Source: Planctomycetota bacterium (GTDB lineage: Bacteria; Planctomycetota; SZUA-567; H5-PLA8). From it: 64,000 bases of DNA. The notes beneath the pieces were generated by a model, which was not told where the DNA came from, did no database searches, and saw only the letters and a program-made list of their open reading frames with translations. Shown piece after piece: positions 8,345 to 64,000 of this stretch (its first letter is position 1; the number at the start of each line of letters is the position of its first letter). The position numbers and the translations under genes are program-made. Location: positions 160,001-224,000 of the forward strand of contig JBBRPR010000003.1 of the NCBI GenBank assembly GCA_038227875.1, read 5' to 3'.

Positions 8345-9283
8345 ATGGGCGAACTCGATCTTCTCAAACAATTCCGCGCGCATGCGCCGACGCATCCGAG
8401 CGTCATCGTCGGTCCCGGGCAGGACTGTGCGATTTTGTGCTGGCCGGCGGGGCGTGATCTGGCTTTTAAGATCGACCAGATCGTCGAAGGCACGCATTTT
8501 TTGCGCAGCGGGCCGGAGGCGGCGTCGGCTAAACAAATTGGCTGGAAAGCGATGGCCAAGGCCTGTTCGGATATTGCGGCGACGGGATACTGGCCGGTCG
8601 CAGCGACCGTCGCGGTGAACCTGGCGAAAGGCACGCCGCCGAAAGTGGCGCTGGAACTTTACGACGGCATCTGCGCGTGCTGCAAACGCTTCGGCTTTGC
8701 GCTGGCCGGCGGGGACCTCAGCGTTTCGAAAAACAAATTGAGCGTCGTGGTCTCGCTGCTCGGCGACGGTCCGAAAGGAAAAGCCTGGCTGCGGCGCGGC
8801 GCGAAATCCGGCGATCTGCTGATGGTCACCGGAACGCTGGGCGGTTCGCGCGGAGGAAAACATCTGGACTTCGAACCGCGTTTGAAAGAAGCGCGCGAAT
8901 TGAGAAAACTGATTCCCAACGGCGTTCACGCGTGCATCGACATCACCGACGGGCTCAGCCGCGATCTGCATCACATCTGCGAGGAGAGCCGCTGCGGCGC
9001 GGAAGTCTTCGAGACGGAAATTCCGTACAGCCGCGACGCCCGGAAGGCAGAAAAATCCGGTCCGCGGTCCGCGCTGGATCACGTGCTTCGCGACGGCGAA
9101 GATTTTGAGCTGCTCATGGCCGTCGATCCACGCGCCGCGGCCACACTGCTGAAGCGGTGGAAGCTTAAAACAAAACTGAGCGTAATCGGAAGGATAACGC
9201 CCGCAAAATTCGGTTGTAAATTGGTTAGAAGGGATGGAACACATGGCGAAATGGCCGATATAGGATATGAGCATCGCGCTTGA
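8345..9283 (+). CDS. thiL: Thiamine-monophosphate kinase
   Basis: GPGQDCA, EGTHF, SDIAA, GGD, DITDGLSRDL and GEDFELL. Confidence 0.93.
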   Translation: MGELDLLKQFRAHAPTHPSVIVGPGQDCAILCWPAGRDLAFKIDQIVEGTHFLRSGPEAASAKQIGWKAMAKACSDIAATGYWPVAATVAVNLAKGTPPKVALELYDGICACCKRFGFALAGGDLSVSKNKLSVVVSLLGDGPKGKAWLRRGAKSGDLLMVTGTLGGSRGGKHLDFEPRLKEARELRKLIPNGVHACIDITDGLSRDLHHICEESRCGAEVFETEIPYSRDARKAEKSGPRSALDHVLRDGEDFELLMAVDPRAAATLLKRWKLKTKLSVIGRITPAKFGCKLVRRDGTHGEMADIGYEHRA

Positions 9284-9334
9284 AGTCGGCCTATTTCCAT
9301 GGGCATTTTGAATCAAAATGGTTAGAATGAAAAG

Positions 9335-9829
9335 ATGGCACAGTTGACCGAAGCCTTCTCGAGAAGCACCGCTTCCGCGGGCGAAACCGAAGATCTCGGC
9401 GCTTCACTCGCGCGCGGACTACGCGGCGGCGAATTGATTGTGCTCTCGGGGGAACTTGGCGCGGGAAAAACGGTCTTCGTACGCGGACTGGCGCGTGGCC
9501 TGAATTGCCCGCCCGGCGTCCGCGTCACCAGTCCCACCTACGTGCTGCAGCACGCGTACCGCGGCGGACGATTGGCGCTTTATCATATTGATGCTTACCG
9601 CATCGGCGGCGGAGCGGCGGAGTTCGAAGCCAGCGGACTGCGCGAATGCATGGACGATGCCGGCGGCGTCGTCTGCCTGGAATGGCCGGAACGGCTCGAC
9701 GACCTGCAGTGGCCAGGCGACCGCATTTTCGTGCAGATCGAACACGTCGATCCGCAGCACCGCCAGGTGACGCTGAAGCCCAGCGGCGCGCACTCGCAAC
9801 AGCTTTTGCAGTCGGCTTTCAGTCACTAA
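9335..9829 (+). CDS. tsaE: tRNA threonylcarbamoyladenosine biosynthesis ATPase
   Basis: GELGAGKT P-loop, VTSPTY, HIDAYR and EW. Confidence 0.95.
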   Translation: MAQLTEAFSRSTASAGETEDLGASLARGLRGGELIVLSGELGAGKTVFVRGLARGLNCPPGVRVTSPTYVLQHAYRGGRLALYHIDAYRIGGGAAEFEASGLRECMDDAGGVVCLEWPERLDDLQWPGDRIFVQIEHVDPQHRQVTLKPSGAHSQQLLQSAFSH

Positions 9830-9863: not shown

Positions 9864-11342
9864 ATGATCATGGCCCGCAAACCCGGCAAACGTGAAAAAG
9901 AGCTGGAGACCAACGGAGATAAGCCGGCTGTCGCGACGATCGAAGAGCACCCGGTTTCCGGAGCGAAGCGGCCGCCGAAAGTCGTCACGCCGGTCACGCC
10001 CGCTCTGCCGCACGTGCCGAAGCTCGATGCCTCGCTGCCCCCGGCCGATCCGCCGGCGCAGATGGAGCCGATGCACAAATCGAACACCGCGATTCTGCGC
10101 CGCCACGACATGTGGGACCAGGCGCTGCGCCAGCTCGACGAAGTCGCCGCGCTGATCAAGCTCGACAAGGATTCACACGTGCTGCTGCGCCATCCCAAGC
10201 GCACGCTGGAAGTCGCCGTGCCGGTGCGTATGGATGACGGTCACGTCGAAGTCTTCCAGGGCTACCGTGTCCACCACAACCAGTACCGCGGCCCGTGCAA
10301 AGGCGGTATCCGCTACCATCACGAAGTCAGCATGGATGAAGTCAAAGCGCTGGCGATGCTGATGACGTGGAAGTGCGCGCTGATGAACATTCCCTACGGT
10401 GGCGCGAAGGGCGGCGTGGTGGTCGATCCACGCAAGCTTTCCGAAAAGGAACTCGAACGCCTGACCCGGCGCTTCACGTCGGAAATCATGATCATCATCG
10501 GACCCGATCGCGACATCCCCGCGCCGGACATGGGCACCAACCAGCAGACCATGGCGTGGATGATGGACACCTACGCGATGACCACCGGACATTCCGTGCC
10601 GCAGATCGTGACGGGAAAACCCGTCTCCGTCGGCGGCTCGCTGGGCCGCATCGAAGCCACGGGGCGCGGCGTGAGCTACGTCACCGCCGCGGTCGTGCGT
10701 GAACTCGGCTTGGAAATGAAGGGCCTCCGCGTGGCCGTTCAGGGCGCCGGTAACGTAGGCTCAAATGCCGCCAAAGCGCTGCACGAACTCGGCGCAAAGA
10801 TCGTGGCGATCAGCGACGTCAAGGGCGGCGTCCACAACACGTCGGGCATCGATCCCTTCAAGCTCTTCGCCTCGATGGGCCCGAAGGATCTCGTCTCCGA
10901 TCACTGCCAGGGCGAAAAGGTCACCAACGAGCAGCTCCTGACGCTCGATTGCGACGTGCTGATCCCCGCGGCGCTGGGCGGCGTGATCACCGAAAACAAC
11001 GCCAAGGATGTCAAAGCGCGCATCATCGTCGAAGGCGCCAACGGCCCGACGACGCCCGACGCCGACACCGTTCTGAACAAGAAGGGCATCGTGGTGGTCC
11101 CGGACATCCTGGCCAACGCCGGTGGCGTGACGGTCAGCTACTTCGAATGGGTGCAGGGCATCCAGTACTACTTCTGGGAGCTCGATGAAATCAACACGCG
11201 CCTGCAGAAAGTGATGCTCAATGCCTTCAATTCGCTCTGGGCGCTCTCGCGGCGCGAACGCGTCTCGCTGCGCACCGCCGCGCTGATGATCTCGGTCAAA
11301 CGCGTCGCCGAAGCGTCGAAATCGCTGGGTCTGTTTCCCTAA
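9864..11342 (+). CDS. gdhA: Glu/Leu/Phe/Val dehydrogenase (glutamate dehydrogenase) with Pro-rich N-terminal extension
   Basis: KGGIRY, GGAKGG, DIPAPD, ATGRGV, EGANGP and PDILANAGGVTVSYFEW. Confidence 0.92.
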   Translation: MIMARKPGKREKELETNGDKPAVATIEEHPVSGAKRPPKVVTPVTPALPHVPKLDASLPPADPPAQMEPMHKSNTAILRRHDMWDQALRQLDEVAALIKLDKDSHVLLRHPKRTLEVAVPVRMDDGHVEVFQGYRVHHNQYRGPCKGGIRYHHEVSMDEVKALAMLMTWKCALMNIPYGGAKGGVVVDPRKLSEKELERLTRRFTSEIMIIIGPDRDIPAPDMGTNQQTMAWMMDTYAMTTGHSVPQIVTGKPVSVGGSLGRIEATGRGVSYVTAAVVRELGLEMKGLRVAVQGAGNVGSNAAKALHELGAKIVAISDVKGGVHNTSGIDPFKLFASMGPKDLVSDHCQGEKVTNEQLLTLDCDVLIPAALGGVITENNAKDVKARIIVEGANGPTTPDADTVLNKKGIVVVPDILANAGGVTVSYFEWVQGIQYYFWELDEINTRLQKVMLNAFNSLWALSRRERVSLRTAALMISVKRVAEASKSLGLFP

Positions 11343-11355
11343 CGGGAAACGGGAA

Positions 11356-11537
11356 AAGGGGTCAGGGTTCAGCGGAGAGGGGTCAGAAGCGAGCGAGCCG
11401 GCTGACGAGAGTGAATGTCGGTTGGCGAATGACGACAACGAACAGCAAGCACGAAAGATATGGAAATTGGCAAGGGGTTACGGTCCCGGGATCAGCGCAC
11501 CAAACTCTGACCCCTGGCCCCTGACCCCTGACCCCTT
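11356..11537. repeat. Inverted-repeat element, heptamer GGGTCAG/CTGACCC
   Basis: Degenerate left arm 11356-11387; right arm 11506-11537 reads TCTGACCCCTGGCCCCTGACCCCTGACCCCTT. Confidence 0.75.
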
Positions 11538-11549
11538 GAGGTCGTCAGG

Positions 11550-14012
11550 ATGAAGCTCTACTACTGCGACACTTGCGGGCTGCGCATCCCAGCCAACGAA
11601 ATTCCGCCGGATCAACCGGAGCCGGAAGACGGAAAGTATTATTGCGCGCAGCATCATCCTGCTCCGGTGCTGGCCAAGCCCTCCAAGTCTCCATCCGCGT
11701 CGGTGTTGCCTGTTCCGCTGCCGAACGCCGGCAGTGCACAATCACGAACCAAGATTCCCTCCGGCACGCGGGCGAGCATCCCGCGCATGACGCCGGCACA
11801 TCAACCCGCTGCGCACCAGACCCCGACGCATCCGCCCGGAAAAGCCGCCGGCAACAAGAACGTGATCATTTTCGGCTCGGCCGGCGCGGTCTTTGTCGTG
11901 CTGGTGGCCGTGATTGCGCTTTCGGGAAACAGCAAGCCCACGCACAGCCGCGAAACGCCGCAGACCGACGCTCCCGTTGCGGGCGACCTTCATCCGCCCA
12001 CGACGACGGCACTCGCCAACGCGACAACTACAACTTTGGAAAAGCCACCCCGTCCCGAACTGCCGCCGGGTCCGGGTTTTTTGACGCCAGATGGTCAAAG
12101 CACCGAACACCCGATCAGTTCCACCGGCGCAGGAAAAGGCCCGGGCGCTTCGGATGTCGTCGTCGCCGACCCACTCAGTGAAAAGTCGCCGCTCTCGAAA
12201 ACCCCGATCACCACGCCCGCCGTCCCGCCACCGGTCGCGCCGGCGGCCACTACTGAAGCCCTGGTTCCGGCGCCGCCGCCCAATCCGCTGAATCTGCTGA
12301 AAGATCCTGGATTCGAATCGGGCAGCGCCACCCTCTGGCTTCCTTACAACGATGCCAAAGTGATCGAAGATCCGGCCAAGGCGCACTCGGGAAAATTCTG
12401 CGCGCGCCTGCGCTTCAACAATGAACCGACGATGCGGCAGGTTGTAACGGGCCTGACGCCGGGGGGCCATTACATCGCCAGCGCCTGGATCAAAGGAACG
12501 CACGGCAGTCTGGGCGTGAAGGAATTCAGCAGCGCCACGGTTGAGACCGTGAAATTCGCCACCAGATCCGACGAATATCAACTCATCTCGATTCCCTTTA
12601 CGATGGGTCCCAATTACTCCTCGGTGAAGGTATTCTTCCGCTGTACCTGGAGCAAAGAGGACACCTTTTACGACGACGTGATGCTGGTGGCCGACACCCC
12701 TTCGCCCGACGTCACTACGCCGGCCAAGCCGCTCACCGACAAACCCGACAAGCCCTCAGGCACGACGGGCACGACGGGCACGACCACCGAAGTCAAACCG
12801 ACGGAACTCAGCATCGCTCAAAAAATGGAAGCCGTGCGCGAAAATACGTACACGCTGTTGCAGCAGAACAAGGCAGACGCGGCGCTCGCAGCGCTCGCAG
12901 AGGCCAAAGCCGACCCGCTTTTCTCCGCTCAATCCACCGATTTGGATTCCGCCACTGTTCTGGCCAGGAGTTACGACGCGACCGTCAACGCGGAAGCGGA
13001 TGGCTTGAAAAAACTGAGCGATGGCCGGGCGTTCGTCTTCAAGAAGAAAGCCGGCCGCGATATTCCCATCGGCGGCGCGACGAAAGCGTCGGTCTCGGAA
13101 TTCAAAGACGGCGAGATCGTGATCGAAACGAAAGATGGCGGCATGGTCGCCACCCAGAAGATTCTCCTCGACGAATTGACGCTTCAGTGCCGTCTCGATT
13201 TGTCCGCGCTGGCGCAGCCGTCCGGGGCCGAGTCGGAAATGAAGCTGGCGTTCGCGGAATTCATGCTGCTGCGCGCCGGCCGCGGCGGCAGTGTCGCCGG
13301 CATTCGCACGCGTCTGGAGCGCGCGAAGAAAGACTCCTCCGTCGCGCCCATTTTAGATTTCATGCTGCGCGAACTGGAGGCACTGGCGGTCAACCAGCGC
13401 ATCGACGGTGTAACTCAGAAGATCGACGCGCTGATTCAAGCGGGGAATCAGTCGCAGGTCTGGCCGATTTACAACAGTTTGAAAAAGGAATTTGGCGCCA
13501 CGCCGCCGCTGCATCTCAAGAAATTCATGGACGAACATATGAATCTCGAACTGGAGCCCGGACTGTGGGCCTCCTACTTTTCCGGGCCGGCTGGCAAGGA
13601 ATTCGAAAAGTACCATCTCTCACGCGTGGAGCCGAGAGTGGTCATCGACTGGGGCTTGAAATCGCCGGATCCGTCCGTGCCCGTGGACTATTTCACGGGA
13701 AAACTGTGCGGCATGCTGCGCGTGGAAAAGGCTGGCAATTATACGTTCATGTCGAAGACCGACGATCACATCGACTTTGCCGTGGACGGCCACCGGGTCC
13801 TCGTCAACGACTCCAATGCGTACGTGGAAGGCAAACTGACGCTGACAGCCGGGGACCATCCCATCCGCATTTACTTCCGTGAAGATGGCGGCGGCGCTTG
13901 CCTGTCACTGAAGTGGAAGTTGGAAGGCGCTTTCGACACGCAGGAAATCCCCGCCTCCGCGCTCTGGCACGAGCCGCAGATGAAAGAGCAATACCAGAAG
14001 CCGGGAAAGTAA
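11550..14012 (+). CDS. Membrane-anchored protein: N-terminal Zn finger, TM helix, carbohydrate-binding (CBM4/9-like) domain, C-terminal PA14 domain
   Basis: CDTC...CAQH; TM segment VIIFGSAGAVFVVLVAVIAL; NLLKDPGFESG...AHSGKF; PGLWASYF, TDDH and FREDGGGACLSLKW. Confidence 0.7.
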   Translation: MKLYYCDTCGLRIPANEIPPDQPEPEDGKYYCAQHHPAPVLAKPSKSPSASVLPVPLPNAGSAQSRTKIPSGTRASIPRMTPAHQPAAHQTPTHPPGKAAGNKNVIIFGSAGAVFVVLVAVIALSGNSKPTHSRETPQTDAPVAGDLHPPTTTALANATTTTLEKPPRPELPPGPGFLTPDGQSTEHPISSTGAGKGPGASDVVVADPLSEKSPLSKTPITTPAVPPPVAPAATTEALVPAPPPNPLNLLKDPGFESGSATLWLPYNDAKVIEDPAKAHSGKFCARLRFNNEPTMRQVVTGLTPGGHYIASAWIKGTHGSLGVKEFSSATVETVKFATRSDEYQLISIPFTMGPNYSSVKVFFRCTWSKEDTFYDDVMLVADTPSPDVTTPAKPLTDKPDKPSGTTGTTGTTTEVKPTELSIAQKMEAVRENTYTLLQQNKADAALAALAEAKADPLFSAQSTDLDSATVLARSYDATVNAEADGLKKLSDGRAFVFKKKAGRDIPIGGATKASVSEFKDGEIVIETKDGGMVATQKILLDELTLQCRLDLSALAQPSGAESEMKLAFAEFMLLRAGRGGSVAGIRTRLERAKKDSSVAPILDFMLRELEALAVNQRIDGVTQKIDALIQAGNQSQVWPIYNSLKKEFGATPPLHLKKFMDEHMNLELEPGLWASYFSGPAGKEFEKYHLSRVEPRVVIDWGLKSPDPSVPVDYFTGKLCGMLRVEKAGNYTFMSKTDDHIDFAVDGHRVLVNDSNAYVEGKLTLTAGDHPIRIYFREDGGGACLSLKWKLEGAFDTQEIPASALWHEPQMKEQYQKPGK

Positions 14013-54707: not shown

Positions 54708-55550
54708 ATGGCGTTCAGCGAACAGAATCACGATACCCCATGGACATTCGTCCCGTCCATGGTTGCGCTTGCACGGAACATATATAAAATTGCGGTGATG
54801 AAAAAGCGCGCGGCCGAACCACATCCGGATTTCAGCTTTGTGGCGTATGCCACGATCACGCACCACCGCGGCTGGCGCTACCCGTTTCACCGTCACGCAC
54901 ACCACGAAGTGATCGCCGTGGAGAGCGGCGCGATGACCGTGGAGATGAATGGAACGCTCTACCGCGCCCGCGCCGGCGATGTCCTCTTCTACCGCGCGGG
55001 GATGGCTCACAAGGAGGACGCCGAGGTCAAGGCGCTGGCGACGACGCTGTGCCTGTCCTATTCCGGTGAAGCGTTCGTTGGTGAGATTCTTCCGCAGACC
55101 AAAGACCGCTCCGGCCGCGTGCGCCAGATGCTGCGCTGGATCCACGACGACATGAACCTGCCCGCCGAATCTCGCGGCGCGCGTGGCACGGCCCTGATCG
55201 CCGCTCTCGTCGCCGAACTCGCGTTTCTAGCTCAGCCCCGCGATGACCCGCTGGTTGAAGGCACTCGCCGCTACGCCCGCGAACACCTGGCGGAAAAAAT
55301 CACGCTCGACGACCTGGCCTTGCAGGCCGGCATGAGCAAATACCACTACCTGCGCCGCTACCACGCGCTGACCGGCCTGACCCCGATGCTCGACGTCCGC
55401 CGCCAGCGCCTGGAACACGCCCGCAACCTGATCGTCTCCACGTCCTGGCCCTTGCGCGTGATCGCCGATCGCGCCGGTTTCAACACCGAATTCCACCTCG
55501 CCAAGCTCTTCCGGCAGCATCTGGGGATCACACCGAGTTCCCTGCGGTAG
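54708..55550 (+). CDS. AraC-family transcriptional regulator (start uncertain)
   Basis: HRHAHHE cupin motif; ITLDDLALQAGMSKYH...IADRAGF...GITP. Confidence 0.88.
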   Translation: MAFSEQNHDTPWTFVPSMVALARNIYKIAVMKKRAAEPHPDFSFVAYATITHHRGWRYPFHRHAHHEVIAVESGAMTVEMNGTLYRARAGDVLFYRAGMAHKEDAEVKALATTLCLSYSGEAFVGEILPQTKDRSGRVRQMLRWIHDDMNLPAESRGARGTALIAALVAELAFLAQPRDDPLVEGTRRYAREHLAEKITLDDLALQAGMSKYHYLRRYHALTGLTPMLDVRRQRLEHARNLIVSTSWPLRVIADRAGFNTEFHLAKLFRQHLGITPSSLR

Positions 55551-55676: not shown

Positions 55677-56300
55677 ATGGCCGACGTTCAGCTCCGCACG
55701 TACTGTTTTCTCGACAGCATGCAGCCCCAGTTCGCATCGCTGGAAGCCTCGACGGCTCAGGGCTTTCTCCCCGTCACCGGCCAGGCGGCGCTCTATGTTG
55801 AAGTCGGCCCGGGCATGGCCGTGCAGCGGCTGATGGACATCGCCTGCAAATCCACGGCGGTGATGCCCGGCACGCTGGTGGTCGAGCGCTCCTTTGGGCT
55901 GATGGAAGTCCATCACGACGACCAGGGCGAAGTGCAGCAGGCCGGCGCGGCGGTGCTTGCGGCGCTGGGCTTGAAGGAAATTCAACGCATCAAGCCGCGC
56001 GTGACGACCAGCACGATCATCCGCAAGGTCACCGATTACCACACGATGCTGATCAACCGTTCGCGCCGCGGCAACATGCTGCTCGGCGGCCAGACGCTTT
56101 ACATTTTGGAAGTCGAACCCGCCGCGTACGTGACGCTGGCGGCCAACGAAGCGGAAAAAGCCAGCCACGTCAACCTGCTGGAACTGCGCGGCGTCGGCGC
56201 CTTCGGCCGCTTGTTCCTCGGCGGTGATGAAGCCGACGTCGTCGTCGCCGCGGAAGCCGCGGAAGCGGCGATCAAGGCGGTGACGGGAGCGGAGAAGTGA
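55677..56300 (+). CDS. BMC shell protein, tandem-domain BMC-T (CcmP-like)
   Basis: LRTYCFLDSMQPQ, EVGPG, VVERSFGLME, AANEAEKA and GAFGRL. Confidence 0.93.
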   Translation: MADVQLRTYCFLDSMQPQFASLEASTAQGFLPVTGQAALYVEVGPGMAVQRLMDIACKSTAVMPGTLVVERSFGLMEVHHDDQGEVQQAGAAVLAALGLKEIQRIKPRVTTSTIIRKVTDYHTMLINRSRRGNMLLGGQTLYILEVEPAAYVTLAANEAEKASHVNLLELRGVGAFGRLFLGGDEADVVVAAEAAEAAIKAVTGAEK

Positions 56301-56396
56301 AGGACTGAGGACTGAGGAGAACCGCCGCTGACGCGGGTTTTTCCAACCGGGAAATTTTTAAGCGAAGCGCCGCGCTGTAACCTCAGTCCTTCTGTT
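56301..56396. repeat. Inverted-repeat element, heptamer ACTGAGG/CCTCAGT
   Basis: AGGACTGAGGACTGAGG...CCTCAGTCCT. A related solo arm lies at 42001-42030, sharing CCTCAGTCCTTCTGTTA. Confidence 0.7.
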
Positions 56397-56437
56397 AAAA
56401 ACGACAAAGTGCACCACAAACACGGGAGACACACCAC

Positions 56438-56728
56438 ATGGCAGACGCCCTCGGCATGATCGAAACGCGCGGATTCGCGGCGCTGGTGGAAGCCAGCGAT
56501 GCGATGGTCAAGGCGGCGAAGGTCGACTTGATTGGCTTTGAAAAAATTGGCGGCGGCTACGTCACGGCCATCGTGCGCGGCGATGTCGCGGCGGTCAAGG
56601 CGGCGACGGAAGCCGGCGCGCGGGCGGCGGAAGCCATCGGCGAAGTCGTCAGCGTCCACATCATCCCGCGGCCGCACGTCAACGTCGACGAGGTCCTGCC
56701 GCTGGGCCGCAAGTCCGCCAAGAAGTAA
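56438..56728 (+). CDS. BMC shell hexamer BMC-H (EutM/PduA/CcmK family)
   Basis: [32 protein letters not shown] and IPRPH. Confidence 0.97.
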
Positions 56729-56816
56729 GACTGGCTTCCGCTGCGTGTCAGTCTGACTTTCGGGCCACGTGGCCCGAAGGTCGGGCCGCTGTGTCACCGG
56801 ACTTCCGAGGTGTTCG

Positions 56817-58448
56817 ATGCAACTGGACGACAGCAAAGTCGCGGAACTGGTCTCACGCGTGGTGGCTCGCTTGAAGCAAAACGGGGCGGCGCCATCGCTG
56901 GCCAAGGCGCCAGCACCGAAAGTCGCACACGCTCCGGCAGCGGAGCACACCGGGAGTACCAACTGGGTGCGTTCCAAACCCGCGCGTGCCGACGATCGGC
57001 CCATCCAGCGCAAGACGGGTTTCTCGTCCTCAGGACCCACTCCCGCGGTCGCGAAAAAAACGGCTGCGCCTGCTTCGACGTCAGCACCCACGGTCGCGAA
57101 GGCTGCTCCGGCCACCGGCGACGGCGTGTATACCGATGTCGATGCCGCCTGCCGCGCGGCCGAACGTTCCTATCAGGAACTCACCAAGCTCGGCTTCAAC
57201 GCGCGCTTCAAACTGATCGAAGTTTTCCGCGCCGCGGCGCTGGCCAACATCGAACGCTGGTCGGTGGAAGCCGCGCGCGAAACCGGCATGGGCCGCGCTG
57301 AGGACAAGCTCAAGAAAAACCGTCTCGTCACGCTGCGCACGCCCGGCCCGGAAATCCTGGTCAACCCCACGACCTTCGCCGGCAGCGACGGCATCACCAG
57401 CATCCGACTCGACCCCTGGGGCGTGATCGCCTCGATCATTCCCTGCACCAATTCCACCGAGACGGTGATCAACAACGGCATCGGAATGCTCGCCGCCGGC
57501 AACGCGGTGGTCTTCAATCCGCACCCGGTCGCGAAGAAAATTTCCTGCGACGCCGTCCGGACGCTCAACCAGGCATTGTCCGCCGCCGGATTTCCCAAGG
57601 AACTGCTCTGCATCCTCGCCGAACCGACCGTCGAGTCGGCAAACGCGCTGATGAAACACCCGCTCACGGGCATGGTCCTGGTCACTGGCGGCGGAGCCGT
57701 CGTCGACGTGGCGATGAAGTGCGGCAAGCGTGCCGTCTGCGCCGGGCCGGGCAACCCGCCCTCGGTGGTCGACGAAACCGCGTGTCTCGACCGCGCCGCC
57801 AAGGCGCTGGTCTCCGGCGCCTCGCTGGACAACAACGTCGTCTGCACCGACGAGAAAGCCGTCATCGCCGTCGCCTCCATCGCCGACGCGCTGAAACAGA
57901 AAATGCTCGCCCGGGATTGCGTCGAAGTCACTGGCGCGAACATCGAAAAGCTGACGAAGATCATCCTGAGCGATCCGGGCAGCCCGACGCATCACGGTAT
58001 GACCAACAAGAAATTCGTCGGCAAGAATCCCTCGGTGATCCTGCGCGAAATCGGCATGAACGTCGACGACCGCGTGCGCCTGGCGATCGTCGACGTCGAG
58101 AAGGATCACCCGTTGATCTGGACCGAGCAGCTGATGCCCGTGCTGCCGATCTGCCGCGTCAAGGACGCCGACGAGGCGATCACCTTCGCCGCCGCCGTCG
58201 AAGGTGGACGCCGCCACACCGCGTCGATCCATTCGCAGCGATTGGACCGCATCACGCGCTTCGCCAACACGCTGAACTGCTCGATCTGCGTCGCCAACGA
58301 TTCCAACTACGCGGGCTTGGGGCTCAACGGCGAGGGCTACACCAGTTTCTCGATCGCCACGCCGACGGGCGAAGGCCTGACGACCGCGCGCACGTTCTGC
58401 CGCGAGCGGCGGCTGGCGGTGTGCGGGGGAGGGCTGGGGAGGGGCTAA
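56817..58448 (+). CDS. BMC-type acylating aldehyde dehydrogenase (EutE/PduP family) with N-terminal encapsulation peptide
   Basis: [43 protein letters not shown] and TPTGEG; N-terminal [12 protein letters not shown]. Confidence 0.93.
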
Positions 58449-58450
58449 CA

Positions 58451-58615
58451 GCATTGCGGATTTCGGATTGCGGATTGCGGATTGGACGGCGCCGCTCGGT
58501 TGTGTGTCCGGACGCCGAAGCTTTGAGAGGACGGATTTGTGGAACGTAAAAGCGCTGTGAAGTTTTCGACTCTCGCGGTTCCAATCCGCAATCCGCAATC
58601 CGAAATCCGCAATGC
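58451..58615. repeat. Inverted-repeat element, heptamer GATTGCG/CGCAATC
   Basis: Perfect 36-nt arms at 58451-58486 and 58580-58615. Confidence 0.95.
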
Positions 58616-58618
58616 CCT

Positions 58619-59152
58619 TCAAGCCACTGCCACCACGACAATGGACGCAATCAGAATGACCAGCGCCACCGACAACTTCACCGCGACGCCGACGGCTCGG
58701 CCGAGTACCGCGCCGAAGGCGACCTGCAGGTTGGGGTCGAGTTTTTTCTGGTGGCGCATTTCGCCGAGGATCGCGCCGACGAAGGTGCCGATGAACGAGG
58801 CGACGACCGAACCGATCACGGGAATTGGCACCAGCCCGCCGAAGAAGGCTCCACCAAAGCCGCCGATCAGCGCGCCCCACGCGGCGGATTTCGAACCGCC
58901 GAATTGCTTCGAACCGAATTGGCCGGCCAGCAGATCGATGCCTTCAGCGACCAGACCGACGAGAAAAAATCCGGCCACCCAGTACCACGGCATCATTTTA
59001 CCGCTAGTGCCCATGCAGAGGATAAACGCGGCGGCGGCCTGCACCAGCGGACCGGGCAGACCGAAGGGCACGATGAAAACGCCGGCGAGCTGCACCAGGA
59101 AGAAGCCGATCAGCGCGAGGCTGCCGGCGAGTACGTGGAGGAAGTTTTGCAT
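58619..59152 (-). CDS. DUF456-family membrane protein
   Basis: PFGLPG, KQFGGSKSAAWGALIGG, PIPVIGS and GAILGE. Confidence 0.8.
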   Translation of the reverse strand: MQNFLHVLAGSLALIGFFLVQLAGVFIVPFGLPGPLVQAAAAFILCMGTSGKMMPWYWVAGFFLVGLVAEGIDLLAGQFGSKQFGGSKSAAWGALIGGFGGAFFGGLVPIPVIGSVVASFIGTFVGAILGEMRHQKKLDPNLQVAFGAVLGRAVGVAVKLSVALVILIASIVVVAVA

Positions 59153-59240
59153 CGTCGTCGCTGCCCGAATGGAACCTTACGCAGAGTACCGCCGCCCGGG
59201 CCGCTCACCAACTGGAATTAACGGAAGCTGGAATTAACAG

Positions 59241-60014
59241 ATGTCGCTGACCCAAGTTCCCTGGACCGAACGCGAACTGCGCAAGCAGATCGTCAAAGCG
59301 TGCACCGCTCTGGCGCGCAAGAATCTTGTCGCGGCCACCGATGGCAACGTCTCCGCGCGGCTGGGCTACGACCGGGTGCTGGTGACGCCGTCGAACGTCA
59401 ACAAAGGCGAAGTCGGCGAGCTCGACATTCTGCTCTGCGACATGGACGGCCGCAAAGTCCGCGGGCGCGGCGAGTCGAGCAGCGAAGTCCACGTCCATCT
59501 CGCCGCTTACCGCAACCGCGAAGACATCCACGCCGTGGTTCATGCGCATCCACCGGTCGCCACCGCGTTCACCTTCGCGGGCCTGGCGGAAATCTTTCGC
59601 ACGCCGATCATCCCGGAGGTCGTAGCGCAGATCGGCCCGATTCCGTGCGTACCCTACATTCAGCCCGGCACGCGCGAACTGGCGGAAGCCGTGGGCAAGG
59701 CCTTTCGCGATTGCGACATCGTGATGATGGCTCAGCACGGCGCGGCCACCGGCGCGAAGGATCCGTGGTCGGCCTACCTGCGCATGGAGAAGCTCGAACA
59801 CTTCGCCACCATTGTGAAAACCGCGCGCGAACTGGCCGCCAGCGCCGGGCAGGAGATCCGGACCTTGAGCGACGCGCAGGTCGACGCGCTGCGCGCCGGG
59901 TACGGAAAAGGGAAATTGAAAAGCAGTAGTGTCCCAACGGAAGTAAGCAGCGATGCGATGGTCGAACGAATCGCCGCCGCTGTTCTTGCAAGGATGGGAA
60001 GGGCGGCCGGTTGA
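59241..60014 (+). CDS. Class II aldolase/adducin family (FucA-like) with C-terminal encapsulation peptide
   Basis: DGNVSAR, TPS, SSE..H, VVHAHPP and QHG; C-terminal MVERIAAAVLARM. Confidence 0.92.
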   Translation: MSLTQVPWTERELRKQIVKACTALARKNLVAATDGNVSARLGYDRVLVTPSNVNKGEVGELDILLCDMDGRKVRGRGESSSEVHVHLAAYRNREDIHAVVHAHPPVATAFTFAGLAEIFRTPIIPEVVAQIGPIPCVPYIQPGTRELAEAVGKAFRDCDIVMMAQHGAATGAKDPWSAYLRMEKLEHFATIVKTARELAASAGQEIRTLSDAQVDALRAGYGKGKLKSSSVPTEVSSDAMVERIAAAVLARMGRAAG

Positions 60015-60163
60015 GAATTGGTGCCAGTGTGATCGCGCGAGAATGGAACTCGGTTGTGTGGCGTTGTGATCGGGAAGTTCGCGAACGACAGCGTTGGATA
60101 CATTCATGAGAACCCGCCCTATGCGAAGCTCCAAAGAACATCCGCTCTCGGAACGCGCCACTC

Positions 60164-60597
60164 CCAAGAGCCAAGAGCCAGGAGCCAAGAGCTGCCCCAC
60201 AATCATGACCATCGAACAGGTCGCCGCCTATCTGCAGCTCCATCCGCAGGTCGTTTACCGCCACGTGCGTGCCGGGACTCTGCCAGCCAGCCGCATTGGG
60301 CGGACGATCCGATTTAAGAAGTCGGTGCTCGACGAATTTCTGGAAAAAGGCGCGTGGGAATTTGCTCATCAGTATCTTACGTACCTGGCGCGCGTGAAGT
60401 CCGGCAGCGTGTCCGTTGCCGGTGAGATGCCGAAACCCGCGACCCTCACTGCCCGCGCCACTAGCGCCGCCGTGCCGATGGCATCACAGACTCCGCCGGA
60501 AATTCCGGACGCACTCAAGCAATTCTCCGCGGACATCGACTAACCATGGCGCACCGCCCAGCCACCCCCAAAAGCCAAGAGCCAAGAGCCAGGAGCC
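60164..60597 (+). repeat. Two direct arrays of heptamer CCAAGAG bracketing the HTH gene
   Basis: Four units at 60164-60192 and four units at 60568-60597. Confidence 0.85.
60205..60543 (+). CDS. Excisionase-type HTH (HTH_17) DNA-binding protein
   Basis: MTIEQVAAYLQLHPQVVYRHVRAGTLPASRIGRTIRFKKSVLDEFL. Confidence 0.85.
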   Translation: MTIEQVAAYLQLHPQVVYRHVRAGTLPASRIGRTIRFKKSVLDEFLEKGAWEFAHQYLTYLARVKSGSVSVAGEMPKPATLTARATSAAVPMASQTPPEIPDALKQFSADID

Positions 60598-60603
60598 ACC
60601 CAC

Positions 60604-60864
60604 ATGATCCTCGGTAAAATCGTCGGCACCGTCACCTCCACGCGTAAACAGGAGACGCTGGGCGGCTTCAAATTCCTGCTGATCCAGAAGCGCATGAAGC
60701 AGGGCGACGGCGATGCCGCGCTGGGCGAAATGTTCGTCGCGGTGGACCTCACCGGCGCGGGCACCGGCGAAGAAGTCATCGTCGCCACCGGCCGCGCCGC
60801 GCGCATCGCGATGGGCAAGGAGGATCTGCCAATTGACGCCGCGGTGATTGGGATTGTGGATTAG
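60604..60864 (+). CDS. BMC vertex pentamer BMC-P (EutN/CcmL family)
   Basis: MILGKIVGTVTSTRK, VAVDLTGAGTGE, GRAAR and PIDAAVIGIVD. Confidence 0.96.
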   Translation: MILGKIVGTVTSTRKQETLGGFKFLLIQKRMKQGDGDAALGEMFVAVDLTGAGTGEEVIVATGRAARIAMGKEDLPIDAAVIGIVD

Positions 60865-61028
60865 CGGCGCGAAAATCTTCCGCCGCCGCCGCGACCGCCT
60901 TGCACAGTCAAGAGTTCTCCCTGCTCATGCGGCGGCCTGATTGCATACGCACGCGTCCCGAATCCCGTATCCCCAATCACGGCCGTTATTCACTTCACCC
61001 CGCGCGCATTTTCGATAAGACATTCCCC

Positions 61029-61631
61029 ATGCATGTCATGACTGAAAACGAGATCCGCAATGTCGCCAGCCGTATCGAAGCGGGTGGGACCTTCACTGTT
61101 CCGCCGGAGACGATCCTGACGCCGCTGGCGCGCGATTACCTCCATGGGCGCGGGATTCAGGTCGTCGATCAGCACGGCGGAAAGTCGCACGCAAAGCCCG
61201 CCGCGTCCGCGCCGTCGTCCGATGACGCGCTGGTCAGCGCCGTCGCCGACGAAGTCAGCCGCATCCTTCGCGAACAGCAGGCGCCGCAGGGAAAGTCAGC
61301 CGCGCCCGCCGATCCCGCAGCCGTGGTGGCGCGCAAGACCATCGCCGGTGAAGGCACGTCCAACCGCGCCGTAGTCTGGGCGATCGGCGGCGACCGGCCG
61401 GGCATTCTCGCCGACGTCGCGGAACTCCTCAGTCGCCACAAGGCCAACATTCTCGAAATCAACCAGACCATCCTCAGCGGCGTCTTCGCCATGGTCGTAA
61501 TCGTGGACCTCAAAGGCGTCACGCTGGCCTTCGCGGAATTCAAGGCGGAGCTCGAAGCGCTCGGCAAGAAGCTGGGTGTGAATCTCTCGGCGCAGCGGGA
61601 TGAGATTTTTCAGTACATGCATCGAGTGTGA
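61029..61631 (+). CDS. ACT-domain protein (UPF0237/COG3830-type) with BMC-type N-terminal extension
   Basis: C-terminal GGDRPGILADV...NILEINQTI...FAM...QRDEIFQYMHRV; N-terminal MTENEI...ILTPLARD; amphipathic LVSAVADEVSRIL. Confidence 0.85.
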   Translation: MHVMTENEIRNVASRIEAGGTFTVPPETILTPLARDYLHGRGIQVVDQHGGKSHAKPAASAPSSDDALVSAVADEVSRILREQQAPQGKSAAPADPAAVVARKTIAGEGTSNRAVVWAIGGDRPGILADVAELLSRHKANILEINQTILSGVFAMVVIVDLKGVTLAFAEFKAELEALGKKLGVNLSAQRDEIFQYMHRV

Positions 61632-61636
61632 CGGGG

Positions 61637-61722
61637 AGTTTTGAAATTTGAGTTTTCAGTTTTGAGTTGTGTGGCGACCGGCGATAGCACAACTCAAAAC
61701 TAAAAACTCACAACTAAAAACT
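61637..61722. repeat. Inverted-repeat element, heptamer GAGTTTT/AAAACTC
   Basis: Arms 61637-61671 and 61688-61722. Confidence 0.85.
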
Positions 61723-61807
61723 GCCCTACCGATCCCGCACTGGGTTTGTGCGGCGTATGGAGTAATCTATTTTCATGCGCGCAGGATGGCGTTTGGGAGC
61801 GGAAACT

Positions 61808-63262
61808 ATGCTTAAAGCACGGCAGGCGTCCTTGATTGTCGGTGAAACCAGCTCCTCGCGGCTGCTGGAAGGAATCGGCGTCAACTGGTGCGACGCGTTT
61901 GGACTCGGCGGCGAGACCGGGATGGGGCAGCGCGGGATGCCGCTCAACACGCCGGCCATTCCGCTGCTCGACAATATTTCCGGCTGGGAGACGGTGCTCG
62001 ATGAGCTGACCGTGCTCAAGGCCGGCTGCATCCGCTTCATGCTGCCGCCCGAAGGCTTCATCACCAAGCGCGGCACGATGGATTTCGACTGCCCGCACTT
62101 TCAGCGCCTCGAGCGCCTGAACGCGTGGGCCGGAGCCAATGGCGCGAGCATCATTCTCGATACGATTCACGTGCCGCATCATCTTCAGGTCAAGGGCGAG
62201 GACGGTCCCGGCGTGGCGCTGAACAACCGCGCGGCGCTCGACCCGACGACCTTCGCCGAGAAATTTGCCGGTCCGCTCTTGGATTACTGTCTTTCCGAGC
62301 GCGGCTGGAACCAGATCCGCTACTACAGCCCGATCAACGAGCCGCTCTACGGCGGCATCTACCACCATCCCAAGGGCGACACCTACCGCGCGTACGCCGG
62401 GCTGATGGCTTCGCTGCGCAAGGAACTGGTCGACCGCGACCTGGTGCCGCAGCGCATTTCGCTGATCGGACCGTCGGCGCCGTCGGTGCAGCAGTGGCCG
62501 GTTCCCGACCTGCACGCGCGCGGGCTGGACATCGACCCGCTGCTCGACGCTTACGATCAGCACGAATATTCCGCACGCTTCGACGGCGATCCGCCGAATT
62601 CGAACGGGGATTCGATTCCGATGAGCGAACTGATCGAGCGGCATCTCACGCCGCACGTCAAGTACGCCGAATCGCGCGGCAAGCCGTTTCTCATCACGGA
62701 AATGAAGCACTCCTATTTTGGCGCCAAGCAGGGCGATCCCAACGGCCCCGCCACGCATGACGCGTTTCTGCTCGACGCCGAATTCGCGATCCGCGCGATC
62801 AACGCCGGTGTGCAGGGGTTGATGCGCTGGAGCTTCCTCAACCCCGGCGACATCGACGGCCACTGGCAGTTTTTGGAAACGGCGGATAATTCGTACCGGC
62901 GCTGCGAGAACACGTTCTACGGTTACGCCACGCTGATCCGCTACGCGCGCCCGCACGCGGATGTGCTGCAGAGTTCCGTGCAGAGCAATTTCTACCCGTG
63001 GCCGCACGTCCACGCCTGCGCGTTGCGCAAGTCGCCGCAGGGCGATGTGACGGTGCTGGTCGTCAACGACCATCCCAGCGAGCAGATCGAACTGAACGTG
63101 AAGCTGCCCGCCTCGCTACGCAAGAAGGTCAACGTGATTCGCAACGACCGCACCTTGAAGCACGCCAAGGTCGACGAAGTGAAACGCGAATTCACCGACC
63201 GCCTCCCGCCGCGCAGCCTGACGGCGTATACGACCTTGGAGTACGATCCGTTGACTCGTTGA
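61808..63262 (+). CDS. Clan GH-A-like glycoside hydrolase (TIM barrel + beta-sandwich), no signal peptide
   Basis: YSPINEP (putative acid/base), PFLITE (putative nucleophile), and C-terminal VTVLVVN...LPPRSLT. Confidence 0.65.
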   Translation: MLKARQASLIVGETSSSRLLEGIGVNWCDAFGLGGETGMGQRGMPLNTPAIPLLDNISGWETVLDELTVLKAGCIRFMLPPEGFITKRGTMDFDCPHFQRLERLNAWAGANGASIILDTIHVPHHLQVKGEDGPGVALNNRAALDPTTFAEKFAGPLLDYCLSERGWNQIRYYSPINEPLYGGIYHHPKGDTYRAYAGLMASLRKELVDRDLVPQRISLIGPSAPSVQQWPVPDLHARGLDIDPLLDAYDQHEYSARFDGDPPNSNGDSIPMSELIERHLTPHVKYAESRGKPFLITEMKHSYFGAKQGDPNGPATHDAFLLDAEFAIRAINAGVQGLMRWSFLNPGDIDGHWQFLETADNSYRRCENTFYGYATLIRYARPHADVLQSSVQSNFYPWPHVHACALRKSPQGDVTVLVVNDHPSEQIELNVKLPASLRKKVNVIRNDRTLKHAKVDEVKREFTDRLPPRSLTAYTTLEYDPLTR

Positions 63263-63272
63263 TAGCTTTGCT

Positions 63273-63359
63273 GGGTAGTTTTTAGTGATGAGTTTTGAGT
63301 TTTGAATTGATCTTCTGCAACACAACTCAAAACTAATAACTCAAAACTCAAAGCTACCC
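63273..63359. repeat. Inverted-repeat element, heptamer GAGTTTT/AAAACTC
   Basis: Arms 63273-63309 and 63323-63359, with GGGTAG...CTACCC termini. Confidence 0.85.
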
Positions 63360-63457
63360 TTCATACTTCGTATCCACCTTCAGTGAACTTGCACCGAAGC
63401 TCACTTCACTCCAAAATCTCTCCCTTCATTCATTCAACAGGACTACAGGAACCGCTC

Positions 63458-64000
63458 ATGTCGCTTTCGTTTGAAGAAATTTTCGAAACCATCCGCATGA
63501 TCGGGATGGAACATCTCGATATTCGCACCACGACGCTGGGCATTTCATTGCTGGATTGCGCCACGGGGTCGGGGGAATCGACGGCGCGCAATGTTTACGA
63601 GAAGGTCGTGCGCATCGGTTCGGCGCTGGTGCCGGCGGCCAAGCAGATTGAGCTGGAACACGGCATCCCGATCATCAACAAGCGCGTCTCGATCACGCCC
63701 GTGGCGCTGCTGGGTGTCGCCGATCCGCTGCCGATCGCGCTGGCGCTCGACCGCGCCGCGACGGAGATCGGCATCGATTTCCTCGGCGGCTACACGGCGC
63801 TGGTCCACAAGGACGTCTCCGCGCCGGACAAGGCGCTGATCGCGTCGCTGCCGGAAGCGCTTTCGCGCACCAACCGCCTCTGCGGGTCGGTCAACGTCGG
63901 CGATTCGCGCACGGGCCTGAACATGGACGCCTGCTTTTCGCTCGGCCGGATGTTGAAGGCCCTGGCCGAAGCGACGCGCGAGAAGGACGGGCTGGGCTGC
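63458..64000 (+). CDS. DUF711/UPF0210 'PFL family' protein, 5' part (runs off window; absent from the ORF track)
   Basis: Manual translation gives MSLSFEEIFETIRMIGMEHLDIRTTTLGISLLDC...GIPIINKRVSITP...LDRAATEIGIDFLGGYTALVHK...SVNVG...GLNMDA. Confidence 0.9.
   Translation, partial: MSLSFEEIFETIRMIGMEHLDIRTTTLGISLLDCATGSGESTARNVYEKVVRIGSALVPAAKQIELEHGIPIINKRVSITPVALLGVADPLPIALALDRAATEIGIDFLGGYTALVHKDVSAPDKALIASLPEALSRTNRLCGSVNVGDSRTGLNMDACFSLGRMLKALAEATREKDGLGC

Follow-up and report, generated by a model that had tools for sequence, protein, structure and literature searches.

In their catalogue of bacterial microcompartment (BMC) loci, Sutter et al. (2021; PMC8217296) count 125 loci of the ACI type, 11 of the MIC3 type and 41 of the HO (Haliangium ochraceum) type, none of which, in the portions of the catalogue available to us, has an assigned aldehyde-generating enzyme; its table of hidden Markov models (HMMs) lists a PF01842 ACT model for ACI and MIC3 (HMM01842act_1_acimic3), and the terms PF05167, 05167 and DUF711 are absent from seven supplementary files, the locus diagrams being pictures and two large archives lying outside the search. 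Price et al. (PLoS Genet 2026; PMC13759103) have given the names GlyXL and GlyXS to a DUF711 protein and its partner, a UPF0237 ACT protein, in a paper from which the word microcompartment is absent. Here we describe a BMC locus in a 64,000-nucleotide stretch of a Planctomycetota genome (the window; G000:C3:160001-224000, from the 9.3-Mb assembly of genome G000, which is 88% complete), where shell genes, an acylating aldehyde dehydrogenase (AldDh), a class II aldolase and glyXS lie together and glyXL follows 1.8 kb downstream of glyXS on the same strand. The window's GlyXS bears an N-terminal module and a helix like that of an encapsulation peptide (EP), and we hold with good confidence that it is a microcompartment-associated protein; that it brings GlyXL along with it is a reading that we favour only slightly.

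According to the available text of Price et al. (PMC13759103), mutations in the pair make Bifidobacterium and Methanococcus dependent on glycine, and under aerobic conditions the Bifidobacterium genes complement an E. coli glyA mutant. The genetic evidence for GlyXL-GlyXS function comes from Bifidobacterium, Methanococcus and Streptococcus only, the link of GlyXL to glyoxylate is purely genetic, and an unlinked pair also works in Methanococcus; glyoxylate is the product that the authors inferred, and R22, R75, R403 and E339 form the pocket that they propose for GlyXL. Their results displace the view, taken in an earlier note on this DNA, that the ACT and DUF711 genes are a unit of unknown function, since genetics now ties them to glyoxylate and glycine. 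Our literature search found no published work linking microcompartments to DUF711 or to GlyXL/GlyXS and nothing relevant on microcompartments and glyoxylate in Planctomycetes or MIC3, and searches for DUF711, UPF0210, COG2848 and PF05167 by name gave no functional study of the family, as judged from titles and the openings of abstracts.

The DUF711/UPF0210 protein of the window (449 amino acids; + strand, from 63458 or alternatively 63383; PF05167, 564 bits) runs past the window end at 64000, and the full gene ends at window-equivalent position 64807 (8458-9807 in the extended locus, L001). It matched the Streptococcus pneumoniae structure PDB 2HA9 over its full length (residues 4-449; E 1.5e-144) with no extension, and R23, R76, E334 and R398 were invariant across 34 planctomycete GlyXL sequences; judging by consistent offsets, these residues are consistent with the R22, R75, E339 and R403 pocket. 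By homology, the DUF711 protein is identified as GlyXL and the ACT protein as GlyXS, with a glyoxylate function predicted for this copy on the same basis. As in the pair of Price et al. (PMC13759103, in the text available), a DUF711 protein and a UPF0237-type ACT protein are encoded on the same strand within 5 kb, whereas the window differs from that description in that its GlyXS has ~110 extra N-terminal residues with BMC-type tags, glyXS lies within a shell operon, and glyA is present in the genome; because of this glyA, GlyXL is not required for glycine synthesis in G000. One GlyXL and one above-cut-off PRK00194-type ACT protein were found in each of four genomes of the family (G000, G006, G012 and G014), the ACT protein being the gene in the BMC locus, and thus the tagged GlyXS is also the only partner available to GlyXL.

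GlyXS is a protein of 200 amino acids (61029..61631, + strand, the conserved start at 61029 lying within an open reading frame (ORF) of 60900-61631) whose ACT domain scored 92 bits against the PRK00194 cut-off of 74. Alignment with three relatives divided it into a module of ~47 residues, a variable linker, a conserved helix, a second linker and the ACT domain. The N-terminal module (61029-61169, +; module HMM E 5.8e-7) and the EP-like helix (61218-61277, +; pattern DDALV.AVA.EVSR.L) were conserved in all four family copies. AlphaFold2 models built from 38 sequences showed the module as a compact beta-alpha-beta-beta-alpha-beta fold (confidence score pLDDT ~94) and the helix at residues 64-83 (pLDDT 68-77) with low-confidence linkers on either side; the UPF0237-type ACT domain (61365-61628, +) was modelled at pLDDT ~95. 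The helix is similar to two others encoded in the locus: an amphipathic-looking helix at the N-terminus of AldDh (~56817-56885, +), which is a predicted encapsulation peptide followed by a linker of ~80 residues and is conserved in all relatives examined, and an EP-like helix at the C-terminus of the class II aldolase (~59946-60011, +), kept in six of six relatives. EPs are amphipathic helices of ~18 residues which direct cargo to the shell and are joined to the rest of the protein by a linker of low conservation.

When the 38 module copies were scanned singly against NCBIfam, the recurring matches were all to microcompartment proteins: 28 copies matched PduM TIGR04493, 22 PduM NF011957, 15 eut_hyp, 12 EutQ and four EutT. 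These matches cover positions 1-53 of the EutQ profile; in PduM and eut_hyp they lie at the C-terminus. The shell is bound by EutQ residues 9-41 and cargo peptides by residues 62-99, and among Eut cargo proteins untagged partners are known to enter the shell by piggybacking (Sci Adv 2025, PMC12487888, in the parts available). GlyXS shares with the EutQ N-terminus and the Eut and Pdu EPs described there an arrangement of terminal tag, flexible linker and folded domain, and its module aligns weakly to the EutQ profile positions that cover the shell-binding helices H1 and H2; it differs from EutQ in that its matches stay under the cut-off, its predicted fold contains strands and it has no cupin domain. 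A profile of the module searched against PDB sequences yielded nothing beyond an artefact from a repeat protein (ELYS) and a marginal match to an E2 peripheral-subunit-binding domain (E 0.058), which we set aside, and on the ESM Atlas the best score was 0.76, below the lead threshold of 0.9.

To survey the phylum, a sample of 401 Planctomycetota genomes was searched, giving GlyXS-like matches in 49, GlyXL in 51 and BMC-P, the shell pentamer protein, in 142. All 45 GlyXS places outside the family were compared with the window's proteins and searched with the module HMM, which was built from 21 shell-linked copies, so that 13 of the 34 loci found to bear the module lie outside the training set. 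Of these 34, 24 were co-directional with shell genes and 10 showed no shell gene, five of the latter having <4 kb of upstream sequence; the other 11 of the 45 comprised eight GlyXS-like proteins without the module, two longer non-GlyXS proteins and one that was left unresolved. BMC-P was present in 34/34 module-bearing genomes versus 0/8 genomes with a module-less GlyXS, six of these eight coming from one family, and in 43 of the 51 genomes with GlyXL versus 99 of the 350 without it. GlyXL began -35 to +110 bp after GlyXS in 21/24 shell-linked loci (21/45 overall), the exceptions being L059, where it lies 5 kb further on, and L045 and L049, where it lies elsewhere in the genome. The typical order in shell-linked loci is (H)-AldDh-H-T-P-P-Ts-GlyXS-GlyXL (H, T, P and Ts being BMC shell genes), with gaps down to 11 and 15 bp in L021. 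In one locus, L038, the stretch that separates BMC-Ts from glyXS contains a second and weaker match to the module HMM (E 2.6e-5; ~9286-9411) in another frame; either a frameshift or an additional, degenerated copy may account for it.

A second phylum, the Acidobacteria, was represented by 301 genomes, of which 36 contained GlyXL and 160 BMC-P (the latter total including G574, which was used nowhere else), and BMC-P occurred in 34 of the 36 genomes with GlyXL versus 126 of the 265 others. Twenty-eight of the 36 GlyXL places could be compared, eight being excluded for truncated matches or too little upstream sequence, and nine of the 28 lay within clusters of shell genes and AldDh: six read H-AldDh-P-GlyXS-small ORF-GlyXL-H and three H-AldDh-GlyXS-GlyXL. 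The survey of DUF711 next to shell genes that the earlier note had called for thus places shell, ACT and DUF711 genes together in 21/45 planctomycete loci and 9/28 loci of the second phylum. All 27 GlyXS copies found in the second phylum had a different N-terminal extension with two helix-like segments, and the planctomycete module HMM matched the C-terminus of AldDh in 8/9 shell-linked loci (E 1.7e-7 to 9e-4). The module therefore appears portable, its carrier being GlyXS in Planctomycetota and AldDh in the second phylum, and GlyXS is tagged in two ways. The AldDh C-terminus of L149 (8533-10299), L150, L152, L153, L154, L171, L166 and L167 was seen to carry an EP-like helix and then the module of ~40 residues. 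Between glyXS and glyXL, L149 has a small ORF (11280-11912) whose product of 210 amino acids begins with a zinc-ribbon-like CxxC...CxxC pattern and has a hydrophobic segment at its C-terminus, and a matching gap is present in L150, L152, L153, L154 and L171.

These distributions bear on whether GlyXS and GlyXL are merely a cytosolic pair for glycine biosynthesis that happens to lie beside an HO- or PVM-like aldolase metabolosome for sugar-derived aldehydes, the extensions of GlyXS serving some other end. The published role of the pair is indeed glycine synthesis (PMC13759103, in the text available), two relatives of G000 have the BMC type without the pair, in G000 the operon is disrupted by hairpins and an insertion, none of 80 loci anchored on AldDh relatives has the pair, and some module-bearing pairs show no shell linkage. 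However, every genome in which the module occurs also has BMC-P, the same module recurs on AldDh in another phylum, its best family matches are all microcompartment proteins, operons as tight as that of L021 are seen, glyA is present in G000 and the association recurs in two phyla, and we therefore regard a chance neighbourhood as improbable.

Among close relatives, homologues of the window's tandem-domain shell trimer protein BMC-T (73-80% identical) were found in five of 16 same-family genomes (G001, G006, G012, G014 and G015), and GlyXS stays within the shell operon in three of the five. In these three (G006, G012 and G014) the order is T-H-AldDh-aldolase-HTH-P-GlyXS, the GH5-like gene and GlyXL that follow in the window being absent there; the ACT protein comes after BMC-P in loci L008-L010 as it does in the window, the HTH_17 gene is kept in L008-L010 and L061, and G001, G006, G012 and G014 have one BMC-P each. 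The GlyXL proteins of the three genomes are 76-77% identical to the window's and have no adjoining ACT gene, and only in G000, among the same-family genomes with this locus type, is glyXL close to glyXS. The adjacency of DUF711 thus proved not to be conserved in G006, G012 and G014, and the proposal that the microcompartment recruited ACT/DUF711 as its core fared unevenly: the ACT protein is tagged and in the operon in 3/5 relatives, while DUF711 is unlinked in three and two lack both. A Memo-like gene (PF01875; L008:10302-11369) was seen between the HTH_17 gene and BMC-P in G014. We also considered, as tagged cargo, a GFO/IDH/MocA gene 3' of GlyXS in L009 and L010, and rejected it: it has no EP-like helix, and its long N-terminus is probably an over-extended start.

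This pattern raises the alternative that GlyXS alone is the BMC component, acting as a linker or scaffold or as a shell-fixed amino-acid-sensing regulator in the manner of EutQ/PduM bridging, with GlyXL cytosolic and their adjacency a leftover of an ancestral operon. Tags are found only on GlyXS, GlyXL having no extension relative to 2HA9; GlyXL has moved away while GlyXS was kept in G006, G012 and G014, and lies elsewhere than GlyXS also in G284 and G379; the module resembles linker-type proteins; and the catalogue, in its available portions, has an ACT model for ACI/MIC3 and no DUF711 model. Set against this, the tagged GlyXS is the only partner that GlyXL has where each genome holds a single copy of both, GlyXL lies within -35 to +110 bp of GlyXS in 21/24 shell-linked loci, it stands between shell genes in six loci of the second phylum, it tracks BMC-P in two phyla, and the pair is reported to function unlinked in Methanococcus (PMC13759103, in the text available). 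When GlyXL and the ACT domain were co-folded from alignments of 34 and 30 rows, respectively, the model also reached the mark, with an interface score (ipSAE) of 0.50 versus 0.00 for the best control, runs that shared at least 92% of contacts and a partner pLDDT of at least 79. In calibration that mark was reached by 116/157 solved complexes and 2/215 mismatched pairs, but scores of 0.60 or less included only 18 of the 116 passing solved complexes and both passing mismatches; the model thus lends weak support to binding of GlyXL to the ACT domain, and it adds only little, because genetics and operon structure already make such binding likely. On balance we judge a microcompartment role confined to GlyXS unlikely, though a stronger contender than chance neighbourhood.

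In the arrangement that we prefer, the shell would enclose AldDh and the class II aldolase as core cargo, each carrying an EP-like helix, and GlyXS would be an extra cargo and the partner of GlyXL. The N-terminal module and helix would anchor GlyXS on either the shell or the cargo core, the ACT domain would hold the tagless GlyXL, which would ride piggyback, and glyoxylate, a reactive aldehyde, would be made or consumed inside the shell beside AldDh. That GlyXS tethers GlyXL to the organelle and that glyoxylate is the aldehyde being guarded is, taken as a proposal of its own, evenly balanced in our estimation; the identification of glyoxylate as the sequestered aldehyde is tentative and leans towards doubt. 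Further still, GlyXL/GlyXS might be the missing signature enzyme of MIC3, of an ACI-like AldDh satellite in the Acidobacteria and of the hybrid locus of the window, with AldDh interconverting glyoxylate and oxalyl-CoA and GlyXS having been tagged independently at least twice, an extension that we consider rather doubtful.

Several results weigh against tethering of GlyXL and against a glyoxylate chemistry. Every match of the module to a family is weak and under the curated cut-offs (best E 1.7e-5; EutQ best 0.0015), the modelled module has the beta-alpha-beta-beta-alpha-beta fold and not two helices as in EutQ H1/H2, a Foldseek search of the module model against the PDB gave no match at E <= 0.001, and the co-fold passed only weakly. 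No shell gene appears in the 6-10 kb upstream of five module-bearing GlyXS-GlyXL pairs, GlyXS or GlyXL was found within 10 kb in 0/80 loci anchored on AldDh relatives, and the counts overstate independence and inflate the contrasts, because the genomes counted are kin. The single GlyXL of G006, G012 and G014 is 133 kb or 533 kb off, or on another contig, and G001 and G015, which share the BMC type, show no GlyXS and no DUF711 protein other than a paralogue of 28% identity; this BMC subtype therefore need not contain the pair, which is not demonstrably its core chemistry. In G000 itself, glyXS is parted from glyXL by a GH5-like gene with a strong hairpin on either side. As to chemistry, oxalyl-CoA would be the product of AldDh acting on glyoxylate, and nothing in the locus points to what would become of it; the function of GlyXL is known from genetics alone (PMC13759103, in the text available). 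Because the GlyXL of the nearest relatives is unlinked, two relatives lack the pair and hairpins interrupt the operon, the case is weaker for G000 than for the MIC3-like loci.

If GlyXL is BMC cargo, this would be independent support for the idea that it handles a reactive aldehyde, and it would offer a candidate chemistry for the ACI, MIC3 and HO organelles that have no assigned aldehyde source. The question of what these BMCs do and the question of which reaction GlyXL carries out may now inform each other, the microcompartment link being absent from Price et al. (PMC13759103) and DUF711 from the text and HMM table of the catalogue (PMC8217296), in the portions of these sources that were available. 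Because the 47-residue module is portable, being attached to GlyXS or to AldDh according to phylum, it may offer shell engineering a new targeting tag.

As for the BMC type, the nearest relative of the window's AldDh (70% identity) is in a Planctomycetota metagenome-assembled genome, in a locus of matching type whose last gene is BMC-P; the next relatives, the nearest outside the phylum, at 44-51%, lie in loci of Polyangia, Eisenbacteria, Holophagaceae, Krumholzibacteriia and Spirochaetes. The shell hexamer protein, BMC-H, is 80-86% identical to that of Polyangia loci, BMC-T is 53-57% identical to Polyangia copies and 44-63% to MIC3-like copies, and AldDh is only 27-34% identical to MIC3-like AldDh. 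On identities alone, the locus appears to combine an HO-like AldDh, aldolase and BMC-H with a MIC3-like position of GlyXS after BMC-P. The resemblance to Haliangium-type shells suggested in the earlier note is thus borne out by BMC-H, and also by AldDh with its relatives at 44-51%. Compared with MIC3 as described in the available portions of the catalogue (PMC8217296), the window shares the phylum, a CcmP-clade BMC-T, the lack of PTAC, an ACT-domain protein directly 3' of the shell genes and a class II aldolase, which in MIC3 is part of the consolidated locus. It differs in that its AldDh belongs to another clade, has an N-terminal EP-like helix and stops without an extension where MIC3 has a long C-terminal linker and four-cysteine domain of ~40 amino acids, its genome has one BMC-P instead of five, BMC-Ts and a second BMC-H are missing, the aldolase sits in the main locus and bears an EP-like helix, and GlyXS has an extra EP-like helix; G000 also lacks the two BMC-P genes in the main locus and the triplet satellite by which the catalogue recognises MIC3. 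The typical shell-linked loci of the survey, by contrast, fit MIC3 in shell make-up, in the long four-cysteine AldDh tail (seen in L021) and in the five BMC-P per genome. A satellite of BMC-P and class II aldolase was present in 7/7 MIC3-like genomes checked, and thus the triad of AldDh, aldolase and GlyXS/GlyXL recurs in MIC3-like genomes. Directly upstream of the MIC3-like operon of L021 (557-3238), genes were seen for a xylose-isomerase-like TIM barrel and an FGGY sugar kinase, which hints at a sugar-phosphate feed into the aldolase.

With the HO type and the AldDh relatives SPU5/7 and MIC7, as they appear in the catalogue portions available, the window shares an N-terminal helix on AldDh, EP-like in the window, and with HO a pfam00596 aldolase that sometimes has a C-terminal EP, the window's having an EP-like helix there; it differs from HO in phylum and in having one P and one T, and none of the 80 such loci has GlyXS or GlyXL. 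The fucose/rhamnose type of Planctomycetes (PVM) has the class II aldolase, its signature enzyme, in common with the window, which differs by the absence of its BMC-P triplet, its two BMC-H and its PTAC. The triplet of the HO, PVM and MIC3 types is thus lacking, and a PTAC-less core like the window's is an incomplete core in the naming of the catalogue. The shell is that of a metabolosome, BMC-H and BMC-P scoring above their cut-offs and a tandem BMC-T being present. The earlier note had proposed a metabolosome without PduL, and this agrees with the presence of BMC-H, BMC-P and AldDh and with the finding of no PduL match (PF06130) in the 88%-complete genome; it was also right that the locus, with one BMC-P, one BMC-H and no PTAC, is not the classical planctomycete fucose/rhamnose type. 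As to its suggestion of an uncharacterised metabolosome, DUF711 is not named in the text or HMM table of the catalogue, and an ACT model is already listed there for ACI/MIC3 (PMC8217296, in the portions available).

The gene map was drawn from Pfam and NCBIfam scans, the downstream end being read in L001. Directly 5' of the shell genes lies an AraC-family regulator (54708..55550, +; PF00165, PF12833, PF02311), followed by BMC-T, a tandem-domain CcmP-like protein (55677..56300, +), which matched the CcmP model NF053796 at residues 4-206 (E 3.9e-82) with 275 bits, under the equivalog cut-off of 340 bits. BMC-H (56438..56728, +; PF00936, 102 bits) and AldDh (56817..58448, alternative start 56769, +; PRK15398, 555 bits against a cut-off of 403) come next, then the FucA/OtnC-like class II aldolase (59241..60014, +; PF00596, 155 bits), for which the NCBIfam scan reached no equivalog cut-off, an HTH_17/excisionase-type DNA-binding protein (60094..60543, +; PF12728, 59 bits) and BMC-P (60604..60864, +; PF03319, 93 bits). 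The cysteine in NVVCTDEK is the presumed catalytic residue of AldDh, and His pairs are the presumed catalytic motif of the aldolase. Between AldDh and the aldolase, a DUF456 membrane protein gene lies on the minus strand (58619..59152, -; PF04306, 83 bits); the + strand ORF at 58539-59237 matches no family and was rejected as spurious, the DUF456 gene being the true one. Because of this gene, which the earlier note had missed, the cluster is not wholly co-oriented; the nine genes that the note described as co-oriented were all recovered on the + strand. The downstream sequence, which it had advised reading, gave the complete DUF711 gene, where the cluster stops, facing a convergent nusB-ribH-PPIase operon. 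Genome searches with PF00936 and PF03319 found no second shell locus in the 88%-complete G000, the total being one T, one H and one P.

Transcription through the end of the locus is complicated by the sequence between glyXS and glyXL. A REP-like palindromic hairpin (61632..61725; RNA fold -44.3 kcal/mol) lies directly 3' of glyXS, and a second with the same core motif (63268..63360; RNA fold -34.5 kcal/mol) follows the GH5-like gene; with 189 occurrences of its core 11-mer in the G000 genome, the element belongs to a dispersed repeat family. The GH5-like conserved hypothetical protein (61775..63262, +; 484-495 amino acids) belongs to no Pfam family. Its close homologues (63-83% identity) number 31, and all four of those with a named organism are from Planctomycetota; three more are distant (27-29%), two of them with PF00150. 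The GH5-like gene was not found beside GlyXS or GlyXL in the loci of relatives and is probably an insertion, not a component of the system. Because two strong hairpins and an unrelated gene intervene, co-transcription of the ACT and DUF711 genes in G000 is doubtful. A scan against shuffled sequence gave one promoter-like site versus 1.7 expected and 12 terminator-like sites versus 12.2 expected, the terminator scan having missed both REP hairpins because they contain no T tract.

Two further features were observed around the locus. The DUF456 gene is also present in L007 and L061 and is absent from the three genus-g7 relatives. Downstream of the locus, at L001:15078-19052 (window-equivalent 70078-74052), lies a gene for a Ser/Thr kinase of 1324 amino acids with leucine-rich repeats and a C-type lectin domain.

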